A stretch of DNA of 64,000 nucleotides from Candidatus Woesebacteria bacterium RIFCSPLOWO2_01_FULL_39_61 (GCA_001793155.1 MGHI01000005.1:23-64022), one strand, 5' to 3'. Positions 11,741-45,024 are shown, numbered from the stretch's first letter. Made by a program: numbers and translations. Notes: generated by a model from the sequence alone, not told the origin.

Positions 11741-12112
11741 TTAGTTCTCGTTTGGTAGTTTCAACTCCTTGAAAGTGCCGTTTTCGTTATAAACCATGCT
11801 TTTACCTTCTCTCGCCATTGGTCCGTTAATAACCTTGTTATCGTTAAGATCATATATTTCAATTGCTTCGGTGGGTGACTGTTGTGCTAATTCAATAAAT
11901 TTGTTTAACGGCATCTTATTTTGTGCTTCAGGTTTAACCCACGGCATTTTGTCAAAAAAGAAAAAATCAGGATAAGTGTTTGCAAGTTCTAAATCCTCAT
12001 CCACTGCATCATCAATACTAATGCAAAAGCTTATGCATTTTCCGTCGGATGTTACAACACCTTCACTAATTGCCCAACCATTGTCGGAGACGGCATGTCT
12101 TATGGGTTTCAA
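11741..12112 (-). CDS. Hypothetical protein
   Basis: ORF only. Flanked by a 20-bp direct repeat (see findings). Confidence 0.3.
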   Translation of the reverse strand: MKPIRHAVSDNGWAISEGVVTSDGKCISFCISIDDAVDEDLELANTYPDFFFFDKMPWVKPEAQNKMPLNKFIELAQQSPTEAIEIYDLNDNKVINGPMAREGKSMVYNENGTFKELKLPNEN

Positions 12113-12243
12113 TTTTTTTCACCTCCTTAAATTACATTACTAAGACTATCAATGTACAGACACTTTGGTTAAAAACAGTCTCCATGGGCATACTTCAGTT
12201 TAGCATGTAATATGAGGTCAAAAGAAGTTATATAATATCGCTA

Positions 12244-35175: not shown

Positions 35176-38100
35176 GTGGCAGAAACTACGGAAAAGAAAT
35201 TAGAAGCTATTTCAAAACCTCCCAAGCTAAGCTTGGTCGGGTTTGAAAAACCCTTCGGGAGCTTAGAGCATCCCAATTCAAAAGGGGTTTTGAAATGGGC
35301 TGTAAACAAAGATCAACTCGAGGCAATTAGATATAAAAAAGGACCGCTTCTTATAATTGCCGGAGCAGGAACCGGAAAAACGACAGTTATTACTGAAAGG
35401 ATTAAAGACCTAATTGAAAAGAATTTGGCAAAAGCTTCCGAAATACTTGCACTGACTTTTACCGAAAAGGCTGCGCGGGAAATGGAAGAAAGGGTGGATG
35501 TGGCACTCCCCTACGGCTATACCCAAATGTGGGTTTCGACTTTTCATTCATTTTGCGACCGGATATTAAGACAAGAAGGTCTTCATATAGGACTTAATCC
35601 AAAATACAAGCTCATGACCGAAGCCGAAACCATCCAATTTGTTCGAAAAAATCTTTTTAACTATGAACTAAGTTATTTCCGACCACTGGGAAATCCGACC
35701 AAATTTGTGTCAGGAATGATACAACACTTTGGCAGGCTACAAGATGAGGACATTTCTCCCTCGGATTACATCCGATGGGTCCAAAATCAAAATGACAAAT
35801 CGAAATTAAAAAATGAGGAATTACAAATAGAGATAGCTAAATGGGACGAACTATCCAAAGCATATCGTACATACGAAGAATTAAAGGTAAAAGAGGGACT
35901 GATGGACTTCGGGGATTTGATTGTTAAGACTCTGAAGCTTTTTCGAGATAGACGGAACGTTCTCAAAGAGTACCAAGAAAAATTTAAGTATATTTTGGTA
36001 GACGAGTTTCAGGATACCAACGTCGCACAATATGAACTCATGAAACTTTTGTCGCCGCCAAAAGACAATGGTAATTTAACCGTTGTCGGTGACGACTCTC
36101 AAAGCATTTATAAATTCAGGGGTGCAGCGATCTCGAATATTTTGTACTTTAAGAAAGATTACAAAAAAGTCAAGACTGTCGTTTTAACCAAAAATTATCG
36201 CTCGACCCAGACGATTTTAGATTCAGCCTACAAACTAATACAATACAATAACCCCGATACTCTTGAAGCAAAGTTGGGAATAGATAAAAATCTTGTCAGT
36301 GTTAAAACGAAAAACGAAGAACCGGTCGAGCTTATTCACAAAGACAGGGTCGAAAACGAGGCAGAAGCCGTTGCCAAAAAGATTAGAGAACTAGCTTCAG
36401 AAAAAAAATACGATTGGGAAGATTTTGCAATTTTAGTTCGGGCGAATAACCACGCAGAACCTTTTGTTCGGGCCTTTGCCAGGAACGCTATCCCCTATCA
36501 GTTTTTGGGGCCGGGAAGGCTGTTTCGTCAACCCGAAATAGTTGACTTAATTTCTTATTTAAAAGTCCTTTATGATTTTGACGACTCGGTTTCTTTTTAC
36601 CGATTAATATCAATTGATTATTTTGATATCAATGCGAGGGATTTGGTGAAAATTTCCAATTACGCAAGGCGTTTAAACCTCACGCTTTTTGAGGCTACTG
36701 AAAAGGTCGACGATATATATGTTTCTGATGATACCAAATACAAGATCAAAAAAATTATTGAAATTTTGAATCGGCATATAAAACTTATTAAAAAAGAAAC
36801 TGCCGGACAGCTTCTTTATTATTTTTTAGAGGATTCTGGGCTTCTTACTAAACTTCTTAATCCTGATACTTCCGAAGCCGAAAAAAAGGCTGCAAATATT
36901 TCAAAATTTTTCGATAAACTGAAGACTTATGAAGTCGATCATGAGGATGCCACAATTCTGGCGGTAGTTGACTGGATCGAGCTTGCAAGTGAAATTGGAG
37001 AGTCGCCGTTGGCAGCTGACGTTGATTGGACAAAAATTAATGCAGTTAACATTTTGACCGCCCATTCTGCCAAGGGATTGGAATTTCCTGTAGTATATCT
37101 CGTCAATTTGGTTTCACAGCGCTTTCCCACAATTGAGAGACGTGAGCAAATTCCTATCCCGGACGAGCTTATAAAAGAGGTTTTGCCGATAGGTGACTAT
37201 CATCTGCAAGAGGAAAGAAGGCTCTTTTATGTCGGAATGACGCGGGCGATGGAAAGACTGTATTTAACGGCCGCAGATTACTACGGAGAGGGTAAACGTG
37301 AGAAAAAATTATCACCCTTTATCTTTGAAGCACTAGGTGAGGAAACCGTGAGTAGTGAGAAGTTAAAAATGGGAAGTGAACAATTAAGTTTCTTGGATTA
37401 CAAACCCCCCGTCATTGACTCACTACCCACAACTCACTACCCACAATCGTTCCACATAGATTATCTTTCCTATTCTCAAATTGAGACTTTTAGAGTTTGT
37501 CCATTACATTTTAAGCTGAAGTATATCTATAAACTTCCCACTCCGGCAACCTCATCTCAAAGTTTCGGGAATTCCTTCCATGCGACAATGAAGGGCTTTT
37601 ACGAAAGTGTTAAGGGAGGAGAAAAACCAACATTGAAATTGATGGAAGCCAAACTAGCCGAAAACTGGATTAACCAAGGCTATTTAAGTAAATCTCACGA
37701 AAATCGGTCGTATGAGAAAGCCAAGAGTTTTATTAAACATTATTTGGAAAATAATTTCGACCCCAAAATAATTCCTGTAACCATGGAGCAACCTTTTACA
37801 ATTCGGATGGACGGCTTCAGGGTGGGAGGGAAAATCGATAGGGTAGATGAGTATAAAGATTTTATAGAGATTATAGATTATAAAACGGGCGCGACTCCTC
37901 TTACACAATCCCAAGCAGATAAAGATTTGCAATTATCGGTTTATGCATTAGCCGCAACCGAAATTCCCGAGCCTCCGTTTAGCAGAAACCCTAAAGAGGT
38001 CAAATTAACACTGATGTATTTTGATACTCCGCAAACGGTTTCGACCAAACGAACCAAAGGGCAATTATTAGAAGCAAGGAAAATGATTGAGGATTATAGA

Positions 38101-38196
38101 AAACAAATTGAAGAGTCGGATTTCAAATGTTCGCACGGTTACCTTTGCGATGAACAAGAATGCGAGTATAAACTGTTTTGCAAAGTAGATGGTTGA
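35176..38196 (+). CDS. UvrD/PcrA-like SF1 helicase fused to C-terminal PD-(D/E)xK (RecB/Cas4-like) nuclease with 4-Cys cluster
   Basis: GTG start. Walker A GAGTGKT. UvrD motifs (DEFQDTN, VGDDSQSIY, KNYRS, VTRA). C-terminus has …DRVDEY…EIIDYKTG plus CSHGYLCDEQECEYKLFC. Confidence 0.7.
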   Translation: MAETTEKKLEAISKPPKLSLVGFEKPFGSLEHPNSKGVLKWAVNKDQLEAIRYKKGPLLIIAGAGTGKTTVITERIKDLIEKNLAKASEILALTFTEKAAREMEERVDVALPYGYTQMWVSTFHSFCDRILRQEGLHIGLNPKYKLMTEAETIQFVRKNLFNYELSYFRPLGNPTKFVSGMIQHFGRLQDEDISPSDYIRWVQNQNDKSKLKNEELQIEIAKWDELSKAYRTYEELKVKEGLMDFGDLIVKTLKLFRDRRNVLKEYQEKFKYILVDEFQDTNVAQYELMKLLSPPKDNGNLTVVGDDSQSIYKFRGAAISNILYFKKDYKKVKTVVLTKNYRSTQTILDSAYKLIQYNNPDTLEAKLGIDKNLVSVKTKNEEPVELIHKDRVENEAEAVAKKIRELASEKKYDWEDFAILVRANNHAEPFVRAFARNAIPYQFLGPGRLFRQPEIVDLISYLKVLYDFDDSVSFYRLISIDYFDINARDLVKISNYARRLNLTLFEATEKVDDIYVSDDTKYKIKKIIEILNRHIKLIKKETAGQLLYYFLEDSGLLTKLLNPDTSEAEKKAANISKFFDKLKTYEVDHEDATILAVVDWIELASEIGESPLAADVDWTKINAVNILTAHSAKGLEFPVVYLVNLVSQRFPTIERREQIPIPDELIKEVLPIGDYHLQEERRLFYVGMTRAMERLYLTAADYYGEGKREKKLSPFIFEALGEETVSSEKLKMGSEQLSFLDYKPPVIDSLPTTHYPQSFHIDYLSYSQIETFRVCPLHFKLKYIYKLPTPATSSQSFGNSFHATMKGFYESVKGGEKPTLKLMEAKLAENWINQGYLSKSHENRSYEKAKSFIKHYLENNFDPKIIPVTMEQPFTIRMDGFRVGGKIDRVDEYKDFIEIIDYKTGATPLTQSQADKDLQLSVYALAATEIPEPPFSRNPKEVKLTLMYFDTPQTVSTKRTKGQLLEARKMIEDYRKQIEESDFKCSHGYLCDEQECEYKLFCKVDG

Positions 38197-38944: not shown

Positions 38945-39187
38945 ATGACAAGCGTATCTATTTCCGAACTAAAAGCAAATCCTTCCGCGGTACTTTCTGC
39001 TGCAGATGATTATCCCATTTCTATTAAGAAAAGAAATAAAACAGCTGGTTATGTAGTTGGAAAGGATATTTTTGAAAAACTGGTTACTTTTGTCGAAGAC
39101 TATATAGATAAAAAGGCTATAGAGGATGCAGATTATACTAGAGGAACTAGTCTTGATGACTTTGTGAAAGAACTGGGTTTGGAATAA
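38945..39187 (+). CDS. Type II antitoxin (Phd/YefM- or RelB-like)
   Basis: 80 aa. Its stop abuts the toxin start (TAAATG). Confidence 0.5.
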   Translation: MTSVSISELKANPSAVLSAADDYPISIKKRNKTAGYVVGKDIFEKLVTFVEDYIDKKAIEDADYTRGTSLDDFVKELGLE

Positions 39188-39451
39188 ATGGAAGTAGTTG
39201 TTACCCCTCAAGCTAAAAAGCAAATCAAAAAGCTCTCCAAAGTTACACAGATTTTGATTGTTGAAAAACTGAAAAAATTAGAATTAGGAATTTTAGTAAA
39301 TTTTCAAAAACTGTCCGGTTATAAAGGTGCCTTTAGAGTGCGAGTGGGAAATTACAGAATAGTTTACAGGTTACTTAAGGGTAAAGCTTATGTTGTATTA
39401 GTTGGTCACAGAAAGGAGATTTATTTACTCTTGAGGAAGTTGTTGGGTTAA
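39188..39451 (+). CDS. RelE/ParE family toxin
   Basis: …YRIVYRLLKGKAYVVLVGHRKEIY RelE/ParE C-terminal signature. Confidence 0.6.
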   Translation: MEVVVTPQAKKQIKKLSKVTQILIVEKLKKLELGILVNFQKLSGYKGAFRVRVGNYRIVYRLLKGKAYVVLVGHRKEIYLLLRKLLG

Positions 39452-39463
39452 AATCAAAAAACG

Positions 39464-39940
39464 ATGAAAATTGATGAAAGTTGGTATAAAAAACCCAAAA
39501 ATAAAAACTTTCCGACTCAAGATATGGCCGGTGGAATCGTGGTTCGCAGGGAAGGCGGAAAGGTTATGATAGCCTTAGTCGGCGATAAAAAAATTCCAGA
39601 CTTTATTTTACCAAAAGGAAGGATAGAAAAAGGCGAGTCGGAGTTAAATGCGGCCAAGAGAGAAATTGCGGAGGAAACAGGCCTGCAAAGTCTTAAGTTG
39701 ATAAAGAAACTTGGAATTAAAGAAAGATTCACATTTAAGAAAAATTACTGGAATACATACTACTATTTTTTATTTGTTACGGACCAAGAGCATGGAAACC
39801 CTGATTTGCAGGAGGGTGAGAAAGACTATTTTACCGAATGGTTTAACATAGATAACTTGCCTCTGATGTTTTGGCCAGAACAAGGGCAGTTGATTGAAGA
39901 AAATAGAGAAAAGATTAAAAGACTCATAAAATACGCTTAG
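39464..39940 (+). CDS. Nudix hydrolase
   Basis: Nudix box GRIEKGESELNAAKREIAEETGL. Confidence 0.6.
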   Translation: MKIDESWYKKPKNKNFPTQDMAGGIVVRREGGKVMIALVGDKKIPDFILPKGRIEKGESELNAAKREIAEETGLQSLKLIKKLGIKERFTFKKNYWNTYYYFLFVTDQEHGNPDLQEGEKDYFTEWFNIDNLPLMFWPEQGQLIEENREKIKRLIKYA

Positions 39941-40025: not shown

Positions 40026-43000
40026 ATGCAGAAACAAATTGAACCTTCAGGAGATCCAATCTCTCCCAATAATATCTTTTATTTAATAAAAACGAGAATT
40101 TTAAAAAAGATACCTCTGACAAAAAGAACTTTTCTTTCGAAGGTAGCTTTATTATCCGTCATTTTACTCTTGCTTTATTCATTAAATCTATTTTTAAGTT
40201 TAAGACAAAAAGACAGTCTATTTAAAAGTCGAGGAATTGATTATTTAGCTGTTATTTCTGCAAGTCCTCGGGGTACAACAAAAAGTAATAAACCAAAAAT
40301 AATTGTTAAGTTCAATCTTCCCGTAACAGCACACCATATAGGTGACTACTTTTACATTAATCCTTATGTAAAAGGTAATCTTAAACAAGGATCGAGTTTG
40401 GAAGAGATAGTCTTCGAGCCTGAGGTTTCCTTACCTCGTGGTGCTTATGTTACAGTTTCTCTAAAAACTGGACTTCCCAGTAATTACGGGAAGAAACTCC
40501 TCAGTGATTATTCTTTCAATTTTACTGTCAGTCACGAAGCAAATACGGTTGCCTTTACTAGCAAAGAGTGGTCAGGTAAATTTATGAGTTTTCAAGCCTT
40601 ATATGGAACAGACATAACACTTAAGGTGGGTTCCGACATATCATATCCATCGGTTAGGATTTATAAAGCAGACGTAGGATTACTTTTAGAAAGTTTGATT
40701 TATAAAGTGAAAGATAGTAATTACAGATATCCGAGGCAGGGCGAATATATAGAAAAATCTGTAAATACTGATAAATTAAAGTTAATAAAAGAGTACAAAG
40801 AGGTTAAAGACAACGACAAAATAAATTTCAAAGGAGAAAAGGGAATCTATTTATTCCAGGCATTAGAAGGAGATTTGGTAACTAATAGCGCATGGGTTTC
40901 CCTAAACGACATTGGTATTCATTTAAGACAGGATGATGAAAAAATTTTCCTAGCTGCTCAAAGTTTAATCAGCGGTGAACCTGAAAGTGGAATCGATATT
41001 AATTTCTATAAACTTGAAGACGAACCGAAAACTTTAGCAATTCATACACTTTCAGGAATACAGGAATATCCATTTACGTATCCTGAAAGACTTGATTTAG
41101 TTATAGGGAAAAAGGGCAATGAAGTAATTATTATTCCGGTTGAAATTCCCAACAGCCAGGCAGAAATACAGCTAACTCAGAGTTTGAATAATAAATATCA
41201 GATTTTTCTTTATACCGATCGGCCTATTTATAAAAGTAATGCAAAAGTTTCTTTTAGAGGAATAGTAAGAAAAGATAACGACGCTCTTTATAAATTGCCG
41301 GATGTAACTAAAGTTAGGGTATATTTAGGTGGCGATTCTAGTTCCAAGTTTGACAAAGAGTTCGATGTTTCGGAGGAAGGAATATTTTATGGAGAATTTG
41401 ACATACCGAAAGATATAGCTAACGGCACTCGATATCTATATGCAACTACTATTCTTGATAAACAAAAATATTCTTCGGAAGGAGGTTACACTTACTTTGA
41501 CGTTTTTGAATATAAAAAACCCGTCTTTGGACTTGAAGTAGAGGTTGATAAAAGTGAATACATACGTTCTGAAAAAATCTTAGCAAAAATTAAAGGTAAA
41601 TACTTTGATGGCAGGGCTTATGCAGATCAGTCAGTGAATCTTACCATATATAGTCGTGACTATTACGAAACCGAAAAAGCAGTTTACAACAGCTCGTTTA
41701 AACTAAATGGTTGGGGAGGCATGTGTGGAGCGGGAGGTTTTGAGGATTACTATGGACAAAAAGTCGGAGAACCAAAAGAGATACAGCTTGACAAAAACGG
41801 AGAAGCCCAGGTTGAGTTTTCGACAAAGGATCTTACATCTATATTAAGTCAGGAGGTAACATTTCTTGTTCAAAAGAAAGACGAGAATGAAAATAATATT
41901 ACAGCTGCAAAAAACGCCATTGTCCATCAGGGGCAATTTAATGTTTTCTTTCGACCCGGTCCAAATAGAATTTCTTATAATGAAGAGTTTACACTCGCCT
42001 TTTATACAGAGAATCTTGGTGGAGAAAAATTAAGCGAAAAGGAATTTTCTTACGAGATCTTTGAAGAAAGTTGGGGTTCGAGCAATAAACCTTCAAAGAG
42101 AGAGATAATAAAATCAGGAAATGTTAAGACAGACTACAATGGAATTGGACTTATTAAAGAAAAGTTAGAGACACTTGAGAGCGATGATTATCTTTATATT
42201 TCAATTAAAACTCTTGATTCTTTAAATAATGTAGTTGAAGCAAGGAAAGGGATACAATTTTTCAAACAAGGACAGAATAGATATCAAAATTGGGGTTACA
42301 ATTCAATCGAACAGACAGTTCTGAAAATCACTTCTTTCAGCAACTCTCTAAAAGTGGGAGAGCCTGCCAGTCTTGAAGTCATTTCGCCAAGCGATTTAGT
42401 GGTCTTTGGTTCTTTTGAAAGAGGAAGGGTATATATTCCTCAGTGGATTAAACTTTCAAAAGGCACGAATACTTTTAAATTTGACGTTATATCTGATTAT
42501 TCACCTTCAACTACTCCAACTTTTAGTTTCTTTTATAATGGAGAATATTTCATAGAGGGTTTAAGCCTTAACGTGCCTGCCCTTCATAAATTAATCGATG
42601 TTGAAATTTCAACCGACAAAGAAAAGTATAACCCGAGCGATACGGCAATAATTACAATAACTACAAAAGATAGAGCTGGAAACTTCATTTCAGTCGATGC
42701 TGGAATTGGAATAGTAGATGAAGCAATCTTTGCCCTTAGAAAAAATGCTGCAGCTCCGCTTCATTCATCATTTTATTATTTCAGAAGGCGCTCCATCAAC
42801 TCTTCTTCGTCCTTAACTTGGATAGCAACATATAATTGGGACGGAGGCGGCGGAGGCGGCGGAGGATTTGAAGCATTTCTGAAGGATAGCGATACTCTAT
42901 ACTGGAATCCGGCTCTTAAAACAGGAACAGATGGACAGGTAAAAGTAGAAGTACCAGTTGGAGAAACCGAAACTACATGGAGGGTGCTTGTTTATGCTTC

Positions 43001-43058
43001 ATCAGACGACACAAAAGTTGGTCAATCTTCAAAAGATTTTCTGGTATCCGGACAATAA
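40026..43058 (+). CDS. Alpha-2-macroglobulin-family protein, MG-domain region only (no thioester domain)
   Basis: N-terminal TM anchor. The C-terminal end GGGGGGGGFEAF…YWNPALKTGTDGQ…TTWRVLVYAS matches the A2M MG-domain signature. The protein stops immediately after it. Confidence 0.5.
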   Translation: MQKQIEPSGDPISPNNIFYLIKTRILKKIPLTKRTFLSKVALLSVILLLLYSLNLFLSLRQKDSLFKSRGIDYLAVISASPRGTTKSNKPKIIVKFNLPVTAHHIGDYFYINPYVKGNLKQGSSLEEIVFEPEVSLPRGAYVTVSLKTGLPSNYGKKLLSDYSFNFTVSHEANTVAFTSKEWSGKFMSFQALYGTDITLKVGSDISYPSVRIYKADVGLLLESLIYKVKDSNYRYPRQGEYIEKSVNTDKLKLIKEYKEVKDNDKINFKGEKGIYLFQALEGDLVTNSAWVSLNDIGIHLRQDDEKIFLAAQSLISGEPESGIDINFYKLEDEPKTLAIHTLSGIQEYPFTYPERLDLVIGKKGNEVIIIPVEIPNSQAEIQLTQSLNNKYQIFLYTDRPIYKSNAKVSFRGIVRKDNDALYKLPDVTKVRVYLGGDSSSKFDKEFDVSEEGIFYGEFDIPKDIANGTRYLYATTILDKQKYSSEGGYTYFDVFEYKKPVFGLEVEVDKSEYIRSEKILAKIKGKYFDGRAYADQSVNLTIYSRDYYETEKAVYNSSFKLNGWGGMCGAGGFEDYYGQKVGEPKEIQLDKNGEAQVEFSTKDLTSILSQEVTFLVQKKDENENNITAAKNAIVHQGQFNVFFRPGPNRISYNEEFTLAFYTENLGGEKLSEKEFSYEIFEESWGSSNKPSKREIIKSGNVKTDYNGIGLIKEKLETLESDDYLYISIKTLDSLNNVVEARKGIQFFKQGQNRYQNWGYNSIEQTVLKITSFSNSLKVGEPASLEVISPSDLVVFGSFERGRVYIPQWIKLSKGTNTFKFDVISDYSPSTTPTFSFFYNGEYFIEGLSLNVPALHKLIDVEISTDKEKYNPSDTAIITITTKDRAGNFISVDAGIGIVDEAIFALRKNAAAPLHSSFYYFRRRSINSSSSLTWIATYNWDGGGGGGGGFEAFLKDSDTLYWNPALKTGTDGQVKVEVPVGETETTWRVLVYASSDDTKVGQSSKDFLVSGQ

Positions 43059-43078
43059 GTATTGAATGGAGAACTACT

Positions 43079-43258
43079 CATTATTTTCTATTTCTAACAG
43101 ATCAGCATAACGGTGTCCAAAATTTACAGGAAGAAGAAAACCATGTCCTTGAATGGTTTGACTTTAATAAACTACCACCCTTTTTTTGGCCGGAGCAAAG
43201 GCAGTTGATTGAAGAAAATAGAGAAAAGATAAAGAAATTAGTTTCTGTATCCCAATAG
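43079..43258 (+). pseudogene. Relic 3' fragment of a Nudix gene paralogous to 39464-39940
   Basis: Encodes HYFLFLTDQ…EWFDFNKLPPFFWPEQRQLIEENREKIKKL, which matches the C-terminus of the 39464 Nudix. The two share a 29-nt identical DNA stretch (CAGTTGATTGAAGAAAATAGAGAAAAGAT). Confidence 0.6.
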
Positions 43259-43873
43259 ACAATAATGATTTGTTTTATCCAAATGGATATCGGCGATAGA
43301 GAAGTTTTTGAAAATACTTTTCAACTCGTCTTTTGTAAAATAATGATGCGGCAATCCTTTTTCGCTTCCGTCAAGTGGGATAGATGTATTTGGCTCAATT
43401 TTTTTAAAACTTGATCCCTGATTTTTAAATTTGGGCACTGTAACAAAAATAAGACCCTGCATTTTTAATACTCTTTCAATTTCTCTTACAATTTTCCTAA
43501 TCTCCTCAATTTTTGCATGATGAATTACTTGGACAGAAACGACCGCGTCAAAGAAATTATCTTTAAATGGTAGTTTACCTCCCATGTCTTGCAATATAAA
43601 TTTTGCCTTTAATTTTTTTCCCCTTAACCACCTTTTTGTAAGTTTTATTGCCGTTTTCGAGTTATCCAAACCATAAACGCTAAGTCCGTTTTGGGCCATG
43701 AAGATCAGATTACGGCCAGTTCCACAACCCAAATCCAATACTTTATTTAACCCACTCTTTTTTAAAAGATTTGTGATTTTAGGAATATCCTCCTGTGGGC
43801 TTTTTAAATATATACCAACTTCTTTAAATTTCTTTCCCAAACAGTTTCTCTTACCATGATTAAATTTTAGCAA
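43238..43873 (-). CDS. Class I SAM-dependent methyltransferase
   Basis: VLDLGCGTGRN motif I. Confidence 0.65.
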   Translation of the reverse strand: MLKFNHGKRNCLGKKFKEVGIYLKSPQEDIPKITNLLKKSGLNKVLDLGCGTGRNLIFMAQNGLSVYGLDNSKTAIKLTKRWLRGKKLKAKFILQDMGGKLPFKDNFFDAVVSVQVIHHAKIEEIRKIVREIERVLKMQGLIFVTVPKFKNQGSSFKKIEPNTSIPLDGSEKGLPHHYFTKDELKSIFKNFSIADIHLDKTNHYCLLGYRN

Positions 43874-43962
43874 TTTTTAAAGATAAATTGCGCTGTGGTT
43901 TTAAAGCTAAACATCAGAAGCGATAACTAGAAGTTCGCGAATCTATTCTGGTCCAGTTAAAC

Positions 43963-43991
43963 TTGACTTATTATAGGATTTGGTGTATTAT
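43963..43991 (+). promoter_or_regulatory. Near-consensus sigma70 promoter TTGACT-N17-TATTAT
   Basis: -35 at 43963-43968, 17-nt spacer, -10 at 43986-43991. No annotated plus-strand gene lies downstream. Confidence 0.5.
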
Positions 43992-44061
43992 TCTCACACT
44001 GTCCAATTCTTTAACAAGAAAGTAAGGCAAAAATTGGCCGGAATTTAAAAGGAGGTGCGAC

Positions 44062-44100
44062 ATGCGCACACTGAATACAACGACTCGCTTTAACCTGTAA
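44062..44100 (+). other. 12-codon ORF MRTLNTTTRFNL with strong SD (AAGGAGGTG, 6-nt spacing)
   Basis: Seen directly. Followed by about 300 nt of GC-rich ORF-free sequence. Confidence 0.35.
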
Positions 44101-44487
44101 AAGATCGTCGGCCCGGGCACGAGGAGAGGACTTTTTCTCGGCAATCCCCGTCTTTGTTGATGGGTGCAAACGGAGAATTTCCTCTCCTCAAATCTTATTC
44201 GCTCAGCGCAAATGCGCGCCTACCGGAGGTGTTCCGTGATTTTTCATTTTTACTAAGTAATTAGTTTACAACTGAATATTGCGATACCGCAGCGGGCCGT
44301 GCCAGGGCGCCGGAGGGTGAGAGAAATGGATGCCAAGTGCTTTGGCTAGGGAGTCCGAAGGACTCGTTAACCTGGCTAATAGCCCGTCCATAAATCTCTC
44401 ACTCTCCAACTCATTTTTCTTCAATAGGTTTTACCTCTTTGATTCTGAATAAATTTTTTTCTTAAATACCCTTCTGTAGATTGCCTA

Positions 44488-45024
44488 TTATTGTGCCGGA
44501 GTTTTTTGGTTGTACCAATCCTGTGGATCGATATTTTTTGTTGTTTCACCTTTCTTGACTTCAACAACAATTGGTTTATGTGAAGTGCAGTTTACCGAAA
44601 GTCCGCAAGTTACGAACTCTGAATAGTAAGCTTTATAAAAAAGAATATCGTTTGTATTAGCATAAACACGATATTGTCCTATCGGGGCTTCGAGTAGATA
44701 GCCTTCACCAAAAGTATATTTTGAATCCTTTATATGACTGTCTGTGCAGGCAATTGTTTGTCCTTGCAAGTTTTCCGCACAAACTTTCATGTCGGTCGGA
44801 ATACCTTCTGAAGGAAAGGATAAAGAACCTTCCAGAAAACCTTTTTCCGGAGGAGTTGTAGGTTGAGGAACAAGATTGCTTGAAATGTCGGTATCAAGGG
44901 GAGTAGTTGTTTTTTTACTACTTAATATTTTTTGGTTCAGAAAGTACAGTAATGTTACAATCGCTAATACGGTTATTACAATTGTTCCTGCGACAAGAAG
45001 GGGGATATTTTTTCGTGTCGGCAT
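44488..45024 (-). CDS. Secreted/membrane-anchored hypothetical protein
   Basis: N-terminal TM plus Cys-containing extracellular domain. Confidence 0.35.
   Translation of the reverse strand: MPTRKNIPLLVAGTIVITVLAIVTLLYFLNQKILSSKKTTTPLDTDISSNLVPQPTTPPEKGFLEGSLSFPSEGIPTDMKVCAENLQGQTIACTDSHIKDSKYTFGEGYLLEAPIGQYRVYANTNDILFYKAYYSEFVTCGLSVNCTSHKPIVVEVKKGETTKNIDPQDWYNQKTPAQ

Follow-up and report, generated by a model that had tools for sequence, protein, structure and literature searches.

Among described systems, the element reported here is closest to the orphan structured noncoding RNAs (ncRNAs) raiA motif RNA, OLE, and ROOL. Like these RNAs, which came to light through comparative genomics, it appears to form a gene of its own that includes a promoter and a likely end signal; its multi-helix fold is preserved through compensatory changes, it lacks coding capacity, and, as with them, no function is known. 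Rfam 15 shows no resemblance in sequence or structure between these RNAs and the element, which is smaller than OLE and ROOL, is known from three lineages only, and has a conserved Shine–Dalgarno (SD)/AUG module. There is also a likeness to dual-function small RNAs, such as RNAIII/hld of Staphylococcus, SR1/SR1P of Bacillus, and SgrS/SgrT of E. coli, which are likewise structured, regulatory-type RNAs of a few hundred nucleotides with an SD-led short ORF. The peptides of these dual-function RNAs are conserved and functional, whereas that of the element, with 12–15 residues, is not conserved, and no base-pairing targets were found in the window. The mRNAs of hok-type systems (type I toxins) resemble it as highly folded RNAs of ~400 nt with a sequestered SD and an upstream mini-ORF, and two of the element's three predicted folds indeed pair its 5′ SD region with its 3′ tail; however, a conserved hydrophobic toxin ORF of 20–60 aa is lacking, and no antisense RNA promoter is evident. 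A type I toxin–antitoxin mRNA was thus rejected, no small hydrophobic toxin ORF being common to the three copies. Finally, tmRNA is of similar size and has a short ORF ending just before a structured RNA block, but the element has no tRNA-like domain (acceptor/T-arm), and its ORF possesses both an SD and an AUG, neither of which is present in tmRNA; with ARAGORN and Rfam negative as well, tmRNA was also rejected.

Judging from the comparison of three versions of the locus, the element is real and under selection, and the best-supported statement is that it specifies a stably folded RNA, probably transcribed independently, that acts as an RNA; the parts under selection are its conserved 5′ end, its junctions, and its two long purine/pyrimidine helices. 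What the gap contains is probably a + strand gene, independent of its neighbors, whose product is a highly structured RNA of ~427 nt, which is rated here as a putative undescribed family of bacterial structured ncRNA. The initial annotation had offered a lineage-specific structured ncRNA transcribed from a + strand promoter as one option, and both the conservation in relatives and the compensatory changes in the helices support it.

The locus, its relatives, and the predicted transcription unit

The window, that is, the whole 64,000-nt stretch of DNA that was analyzed, corresponds to JGI contig 3300002503 C687J35164_10000040 and comes from a candidate-phyla-radiation (CPR) genome of ~35% GC. 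The gap, 43874–44487, lies between two − strand genes.

43238–43873, − strand: class I SAM methyltransferase, 211 aa; JGI calls the start at 43840
44488–45024, − strand: 178-aa protein without a Pfam match

Much of what the initial annotation had said of this setting is borne out: both flanking genes are on the − strand, no + strand gene follows downstream (the same is true of all three loci), and the gap is a GC-rich island, with a GC content of 0.47–0.55 in its core at ~44050–44400 vs 0.26–0.36 in the flanks. The description of the gap as ORF-free does not hold literally, as mechanical ORFs of 25–57 aa exist, but it stands in the sense that none of these is conserved in the two relatives described below, L002 and L003. 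Across the three lineages, no conserved protein, in frame or in length, was found in the gap in any of the six frames, and the gene callers placed no ORF in it in any of the three contigs.

The 178-aa gene is convergent with the RNA gene, and its product, predicted to be a membrane or secreted protein, is encoded in a FemAB cell-wall cluster; no functional tie between this protein and the RNA was seen. Other neighbors include two UvrD-type helicases, FemAB-family proteins, LytR, NUDIX, and an MG2/A2M protein, and ~5.8 kb of other genes separate the RNA in the window from the helicase (35176–38196) that corresponds to the one adjoining the unit in the relatives L002 and L003. Within this block, a 93-aa ORF (42977–43258, + strand) repeats the C-terminal half of the NUDIX gene (39464–39940, + strand; 57% identity over 63 aa) in truncated form, a duplicate that marks a rearrangement in the 5.8-kb stretch, which lies between helicase and RNA in this genome only. 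The same block carries a ParE toxin/PhdYeFM antitoxin pair, as called by JGI (~38950–39450; L001 11574–12080), between a 2-phosphosulfolactate phosphatase-like gene and the NUDIX gene, as well as a 1010-aa MG2/alpha-2-macroglobulin-like protein (40026–43058, + strand) with eight consecutive glycines (WDGGGGGGGGFEAF).

With the 178-aa neighbor as the anchor for finding relatives, the contigs encoding its homologues were examined (n = 11); the named homologues come from Microgenomates, Woesebacteria, WWE3, and Patescibacteria. The unit recurs in L002, whose 178-aa neighbor is 68% identical, and in L003/L004 (64%), all from Microgenomates-like lineages, so that three distinct versions of the element are known. 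In L002 and L003, the gap after the 178-aa gene measures 550–590 bp and aligns over the whole functional length of the window gap, and on the other side lies a UvrD/PDDEXK helicase gene, with its 3′ end toward the unit and without a methyltransferase. A homologue of this helicase in L073 (6595–10534, − strand), at least 1344 aa long, contains Hint/intein-splicing domains, which indicate an intein insertion.

The promoter reported by the initial annotation, TTGACT-N17-TATTAT, is present, its position is conserved in the three lineages, and the predicted transcription unit extends from it as follows.

43963–43991, + strand: sigma-70-type promoter; −35 box TTGACT (43963–43968), 17-nt spacer, −10 box TATTAT (43986–43991)
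43996–44422, + strand: predicted transcript, ~427 nt; begins ~5–8 nt past the −10 box and ends with the U-tract
44408–44422, + strand: 3′ tail AACUCAUUUUUCUUC (U-tract), conserved in all three versions; conservation collapses directly after it

A TG lies directly upstream of the −10 box, and the −35 box of L003 reads TTGACA. A promoter scan lists the + strand site with 10 of 12 matches; such a match alone is at chance level (two sites found vs 2.1 expected in shuffles), and it is the conservation in L002 and L003, spacer included, that raises this promoter above chance. No other 30-nt block of the locus is conserved as strongly as this promoter, whose three-way identity, again including the spacer, is 80%. 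The − strand carries a promoter-like site of its own at 43970–43997, GTGAGA-N16-TATAAT with a perfect −10, which overlaps the conserved + strand promoter block; it faces the methyltransferase in the window, and only the end of the convergent helicase gene in L002 and L003.

When the three-way alignment is extended into the flanks, conservation sets in at 43959, four bases before the −35 box, and ends near 44430, shortly past the U-tract. Upstream of this position, three-way identity is 13–27%; it then rises to 80% across the promoter and amounts to 73% over the first transcribed bases. In the core, identity is patchy but high, with peaks of 67% at 44172–44201 and 44322–44348, and it stays at ~50% through 44436, falls to 20% at 44437–44466, and remains low until the 178-aa coding sequence begins. 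The intergenic DNA on either side of the unit is not alignable among the three genomes, while the identity peaks within the unit are as high as those of the neighboring coding sequence. Limits at the −35 box and at the U-tract fit a + strand transcription unit, and the extent of the transcript given above combines the promoter with these limits of the conserved block; transcription, strand, and transcript ends are thus what we infer from the DNA. The U-tract, which comes after a long GC-rich hairpin, is likely the transcript end, although the U-run begins 6 nt past the stem, unlike that of a textbook intrinsic terminator, and the terminator scan did not list it.

Predicted fold of the RNA and the small reading frame

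The predicted RNA comprises two 5′ hairpins, a multi-helix core closed by the helix P1, and a long terminal hairpin.

44000–44041, + strand: 5′ hairpin H0, with almost no variation in the first ~20 transcribed bases, CACACUG(U)CCAAYUCUUUAA
44048–44091, + strand: SD/AUG hairpin; AAAGGAG (44048–44054) pairs with the CU tract CTCGCTTT (44084–44091), inside the small ORF
44062–44100, + strand: sORF1, 12 codons (MRTLNTTTRFNL); AAGGAGGTG at 44049–44057, then 4 nt, ATG at 44062, TAA at 44100
44111–44120, + strand: 5′ strand of P1, GCCCGGGCAC, pairing with 44299–44308 in minimum-free-energy folds
44121–44189, + strand: helix A, a long hairpin built on the outer stem GAGGAGAGGA/UCCUCUCCUC, with a conserved inner AAUCCCCG and CCGUC...GAUGG
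44190–44202, + strand: junction AA(A)UCUUAUUCGC (CUUAUUCGC), nearly invariant in three lineages
44206–44217, + strand: hairpin C, GCGC-AAAU-GCGC; L002 and L003 have U-A in place of one C-G pair, a double change
44224–44236, + strand: hairpin D, CGGAG-GUG-UUCCG, with a second GGAGG within it and a conserved UGA next to it
44237–44298, + strand: AU-rich variable segment with small lineage-specific hairpins; conserved YURARUARUU, CUGAAnAUA, and GCGG
44299–44308, + strand: 3′ strand of P1, GTGCCAGGGC
44312–44407, + strand: helix B, a 96-nt hairpin; 13-bp outer stem GGAGGGUGAGAGA/UCUCUCACUCUCC, A-rich internal loop, GGAUG/CGUCC, variable tip

Complementary segments had been pointed out in the initial annotation, and the hairpin segments that it quoted, GGAGTCCGAAGGACTC and GCGCAAATGCGC, are present. 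Alignment with L002 and L003 reveals that the region is conserved and that several of its helices retain pairing through compensatory changes. The closing pairs of H0 are CCA/UGG in the window vs GCC/GGC in L002 and L003. In the SD/AUG hairpin, where an inner stem GTGCG/CGCAC (44055–44059/44065–44069) places the ATG in the loop, both stems are preserved with differing sequences across the three lineages, and double changes are present. Helix A shows two A-U to G-C double changes in L003, which also carries a 42-nt insertion in this helix, and one G-U in L002, and three of the five pairs of hairpin D have undergone double changes across the three lineages. In the outer stem of helix B, pair 5 differs in each version (window, G-U; L002, G-C; L003, A-U); the apical part of this helix is rebuilt in L003, and a hairpin is still formed. 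Altogether, ~8–10 compensatory pairs are distributed over five helices, a count that comes from three distinct sequences only. The sequence of P1 is invariant and hence shows no covariation, and its 5′ strand has an alternative partner, CGGGCC at 44291–44296; P1 and several junctions, being invariant, are uninformative on pairing.

The second 5′ hairpin contains the SD-led 12-codon ORF of the initial annotation, AAGGAGGTG-N4-ATG encoding MRTLNTTTRFNL, which is found as reported. The initial annotation had also raised a dual-function sRNA with a small peptide, which the locus may be, given that its SD/ATG module is conserved while its peptide is not. It is possible, if unlikely, that translation of this sORF1 is the point of the locus, the RNA being either the mRNA of a micro-peptide, followed by a long structured 3′ UTR, or a translation-coupled RNA whose core is opened by the ribosome that arrives at the stop codon just ahead of P1. 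The SD (AAAGGAGG), its 6-nt spacing, and the ATG are invariant in the three lineages amid otherwise variable sequence; the ORF lengths, 12, 12, and 15 codons (39, 39, and 48 nt), differ by multiples of three; and the stop lies 7–9 nt before the conserved CGGCCCGG, which contains the P1 5′ strand, in all three (in the window, 8 nt before CGGCCCGG at 44109 and 10 nt before the P1 part at 44111). SD sequences are, moreover, scarce in this genome, ~1 of 32 long ORFs having one, and AAGGAGGTG occurs just twice in 128 kb, at 44049 on the + strand and at 12128 on the − strand, the latter copy preceding a plausible, real-looking TTG-start ORF of 123 aa (11741–12112). Against this stand the peptides themselves, which are not conserved, MRTLNTTTRFNL having almost nothing in common with MKMHLTHVSFVA and MLCTTRLNRTHFSKV, and the fact that chance alone would leave a 12-codon frame open in about half of all cases. 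In all three lineages, the prediction has the SD mostly paired (p_unpaired 0.11–0.22) and the ATG unpaired (0.90–0.98). The "SD" may furthermore be a mere helix strand, given that every long helix of the RNA has a GGAG-rich 5′ strand, and the greater part of the conserved sequence is downstream of the ORF.

Two more GGAGG motifs in the RNA are each followed by a conserved NUG. The one at 44224–44256 precedes GTG 44236, which opens 6 codons in all three lineages, and the one at 44312–44349 precedes ATG 44326, with 7, 41, and 9 codons in the three. Genes in this genome mostly start without an SD upstream, and their leaders are A/T-rich, often with ...AAATT/AGATT before the ATG, as at the starts 48847 (−), 46960 (−), and 40026 (+).

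Choice of strand

Although the stand-alone + strand RNA is preferred here, a functional RNA on the − strand has to be weighed, namely, an RNA that would come from the 3′ UTR of the 178-aa gene or from read-through of it, and whose several CCUCC anti-SD-like motifs could base-pair with sites of ribosome binding. No terminator is obvious for the 178-aa gene itself, and on its strand the region folds far better than shuffles (z of −5.3 to −6.4), a hairpin followed by CCUCCUUUU resembles a weak terminator, and the tip of helix B reads C-UUCG-G. The private insertion in helix A of L003 and the 5′ hairpin of L002 and L003 are also stabler on this strand. The C-UUCG-G tetraloop, however, is present in the window only. 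Were the conserved unit the 3′ UTR of the 178-aa gene, conservation would begin at its stop codon, and it does not; between this stop codon and helix B, there is neither a conserved promoter nor conservation, whereas at the other end conservation extends 90 nt beyond the putative − strand terminator and is highest there.

Folding energies lead in the same direction. Relative to shuffled controls, z-scores for the + and − strands are −6.95 and −5.29 in the window, −10.55 and −6.42 in L002, and −7.51 and −5.33 in L003, favoring the + strand in all three lineages. Where the + strand has G-U pairs, the conserved helices would have A-C mismatches on the − strand: the ten helices common to the three sequences comprise 178 Watson–Crick pairs, 12 G-U pairs, and one mismatch on the + strand, and no G-U pairs and 13 mismatches when mirrored on the − strand, a count biased by the curation of these helices on the + strand. 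It should be noted that RNAalifold on the raw MAFFT alignments does not tell the strands apart and that the pairs were counted by a script, since MAFFT shifts the hairpin strands of L003 by one column. Taken together, the limits of conservation, the z-scores, and the pairing make the + strand very probably the functional one, and the − strand RNA appears decidedly unlikely.

Known families, distribution, and implications

The initial annotation had seen no convincing hallmarks of RNase P RNA, tmRNA, or SRP RNA, and scans with Rfam 15 and ARAGORN confirm this. At gathering thresholds, Rfam 15 returned only tRNA-Cys from the 64-kb window; scans of the three gaps at E ≤ 10 gave weak, unrelated matches only (RT-17, miRNAs, and SAM-II), with no family in common, and ARAGORN at default settings found neither tRNA nor tmRNA in the gap, relaxed settings giving inconsistent noise. 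RNase P RNA, which would be recognized by a P4 helix with CR-I (GAGGAAAGUCC) and CR-V (ACAGAAnnCGGCUUA) and a score above the Rfam model threshold, is matched by no model in any of the three copies, whether at the gathering threshold or at E ≤ 10, and the sole resemblance, GAAAAAGUCC, is on the − strand and in the wrong position. SRP RNA (4.5S or large), defined by a helix 8 with symmetric and asymmetric loops, a GNRA-type tetraloop, and an Rfam model match, has no Rfam match at E ≤ 10 in the three copies. As for 6S RNA, this molecule is a rod of ~180 nt whose large central bubble imitates an open promoter. The folds predicted here are branched, with P1 enclosing at least three hairpins and the 96-nt hairpin standing apart, and they have no Rfam 6S match.

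It is nevertheless conceivable that a very divergent housekeeping RNA (6S, RNase P, tmRNA, or SRP) was missed by the standard models. A GC-rich island with a strong promoter in an AT-rich genome is what stable RNA genes look like, the size is within the range of RNase P RNA and tmRNA, and 6S RNAs have so little sequence conservation that a standard model could miss one. Such an identity is very improbable in view of the absence of any match to the four families at E ≤ 10 in three copies, the lack of a tRNA-like domain, the branched multi-helix shape, which is not a 6S-type rod, and the 8–9 relatives without the element at the syntenic site, in which the gene could, however, sit elsewhere in the genome.

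These relatives are about 8–9 more distant homologues of the 178-aa protein (47–62% identity), next to which another gene or no gap takes the place of the element. Wider searches gave a similar picture. A scan of GTDB species genomes with the pattern TATTCGC-N95–125-GAGAGAAATGGATG, which is probably too strict, yielded four matches, none of which fit the nhmmer profile of the element, and the one that was inspected lies inside an ATP-synthase-like coding region. The same kind of scan of JGI metagenome contigs, a collection that is not exhaustive, as the window's own contig was not returned, gave 29 matches, again none fitting the nhmmer profile. No copy of the element was found in a scan of IMG/VR viral contigs or by blastn against phages and plasmids. 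The RNA may thus be confined to a very small clade. Full-text literature searches covering CPR, Patescibacteria, and Microgenomates turned up no description of a lineage-specific ncRNA in Microgenomates and nothing relevant on SD usage.

The distribution of flanks also bears on the proposal, made in the initial annotation, of a riboswitch-like leader of the divergent methyltransferase. The element does adjoin the 5′ end of this gene in the window, yet the methyltransferase is on the opposite strand, and the unit is complete in L002 and L003, where no methyltransferase adjoins it; because a helicase flanks the unit there instead, the unit is independent of the methyltransferase. A riboswitch or cis-regulatory leader of any other adjacent gene was rejected on the ground that no + strand gene follows the unit in any of the three loci, and no known riboswitch aptamer matched, SAM-II alone being listed, with E = 8.7 and in the AT-rich flank. 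The element is, therefore, certainly not a leader of the methyltransferase, and the leader reading as a whole has scarcely any likelihood left. Equally hard to credit is a nonfunctional relic, for example, of a mobile element, conserved merely through recent divergence of the three genomes, for although the distribution is narrow and the element adjoins a rearranged, variable gene block, the flanking intergenic DNA has 13–27% three-way identity vs blocks of 67–80% inside, and paired positions change compensatorily.

For the preferred reading, a + strand gene for a structured RNA, the following course can be proposed. Transcription would start near 43996 from the sigma-70-type promoter at 43963–43991, and the RNA would fold into the 5′ hairpin and then the hairpin that holds a perfect SD in its stem and the AUG in its loop. 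A multi-helix core closed by P1 would follow, made up of helix A, hairpins C and D, and the variable AU-rich arm; the 96-nt terminal hairpin and the U-tract would come last, and the transcript would probably stop there. Most likely, the molecule would act as a folded trans-acting RNA that binds a protein or the ribosome and not via the peptide, and the SD/AUG module would most plausibly serve it as a regulatory element or as one that binds ribosomes conditionally. In a search of the window, targets complementary to the conserved 5′ end turned up in chance numbers only.

A bolder proposal, which we consider improbable, sees in the RNA a new kind of riboregulator that senses translation. Here, the SD/AUG hairpin would recruit ribosomes to a throw-away mini-ORF with its stop codon 7–9 nt ahead of P1, and their traffic would open or close the 300-nt folded domain and could also free the GGG of the P1 3′ strand to complete the terminator stem beside the U-tract; with its two further GGAGG-NUG modules, the RNA would then be a multi-site ribosome/30S binder. 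In the variant of a translation-coupled switch, P1 would be opened by a ribosome that has reached the sORF1 stop, and the GGG of the P1 3′ strand could then pair with the CUC beside the U-tract.

With three lineages known, the general impact of the element is limited unless homologues prove to be wider. If the SD/AUG module of the structured RNA is functional, it would bear on SD-dependent initiation in an SD-poor lineage. CPR bacteria have tiny genomes, and an RNA of ~430 nt that is as conserved as the neighboring proteins and has a near-consensus promoter suggests that these organisms, with their reduced genomes, invest in an RNA-based function that has not yet been described.
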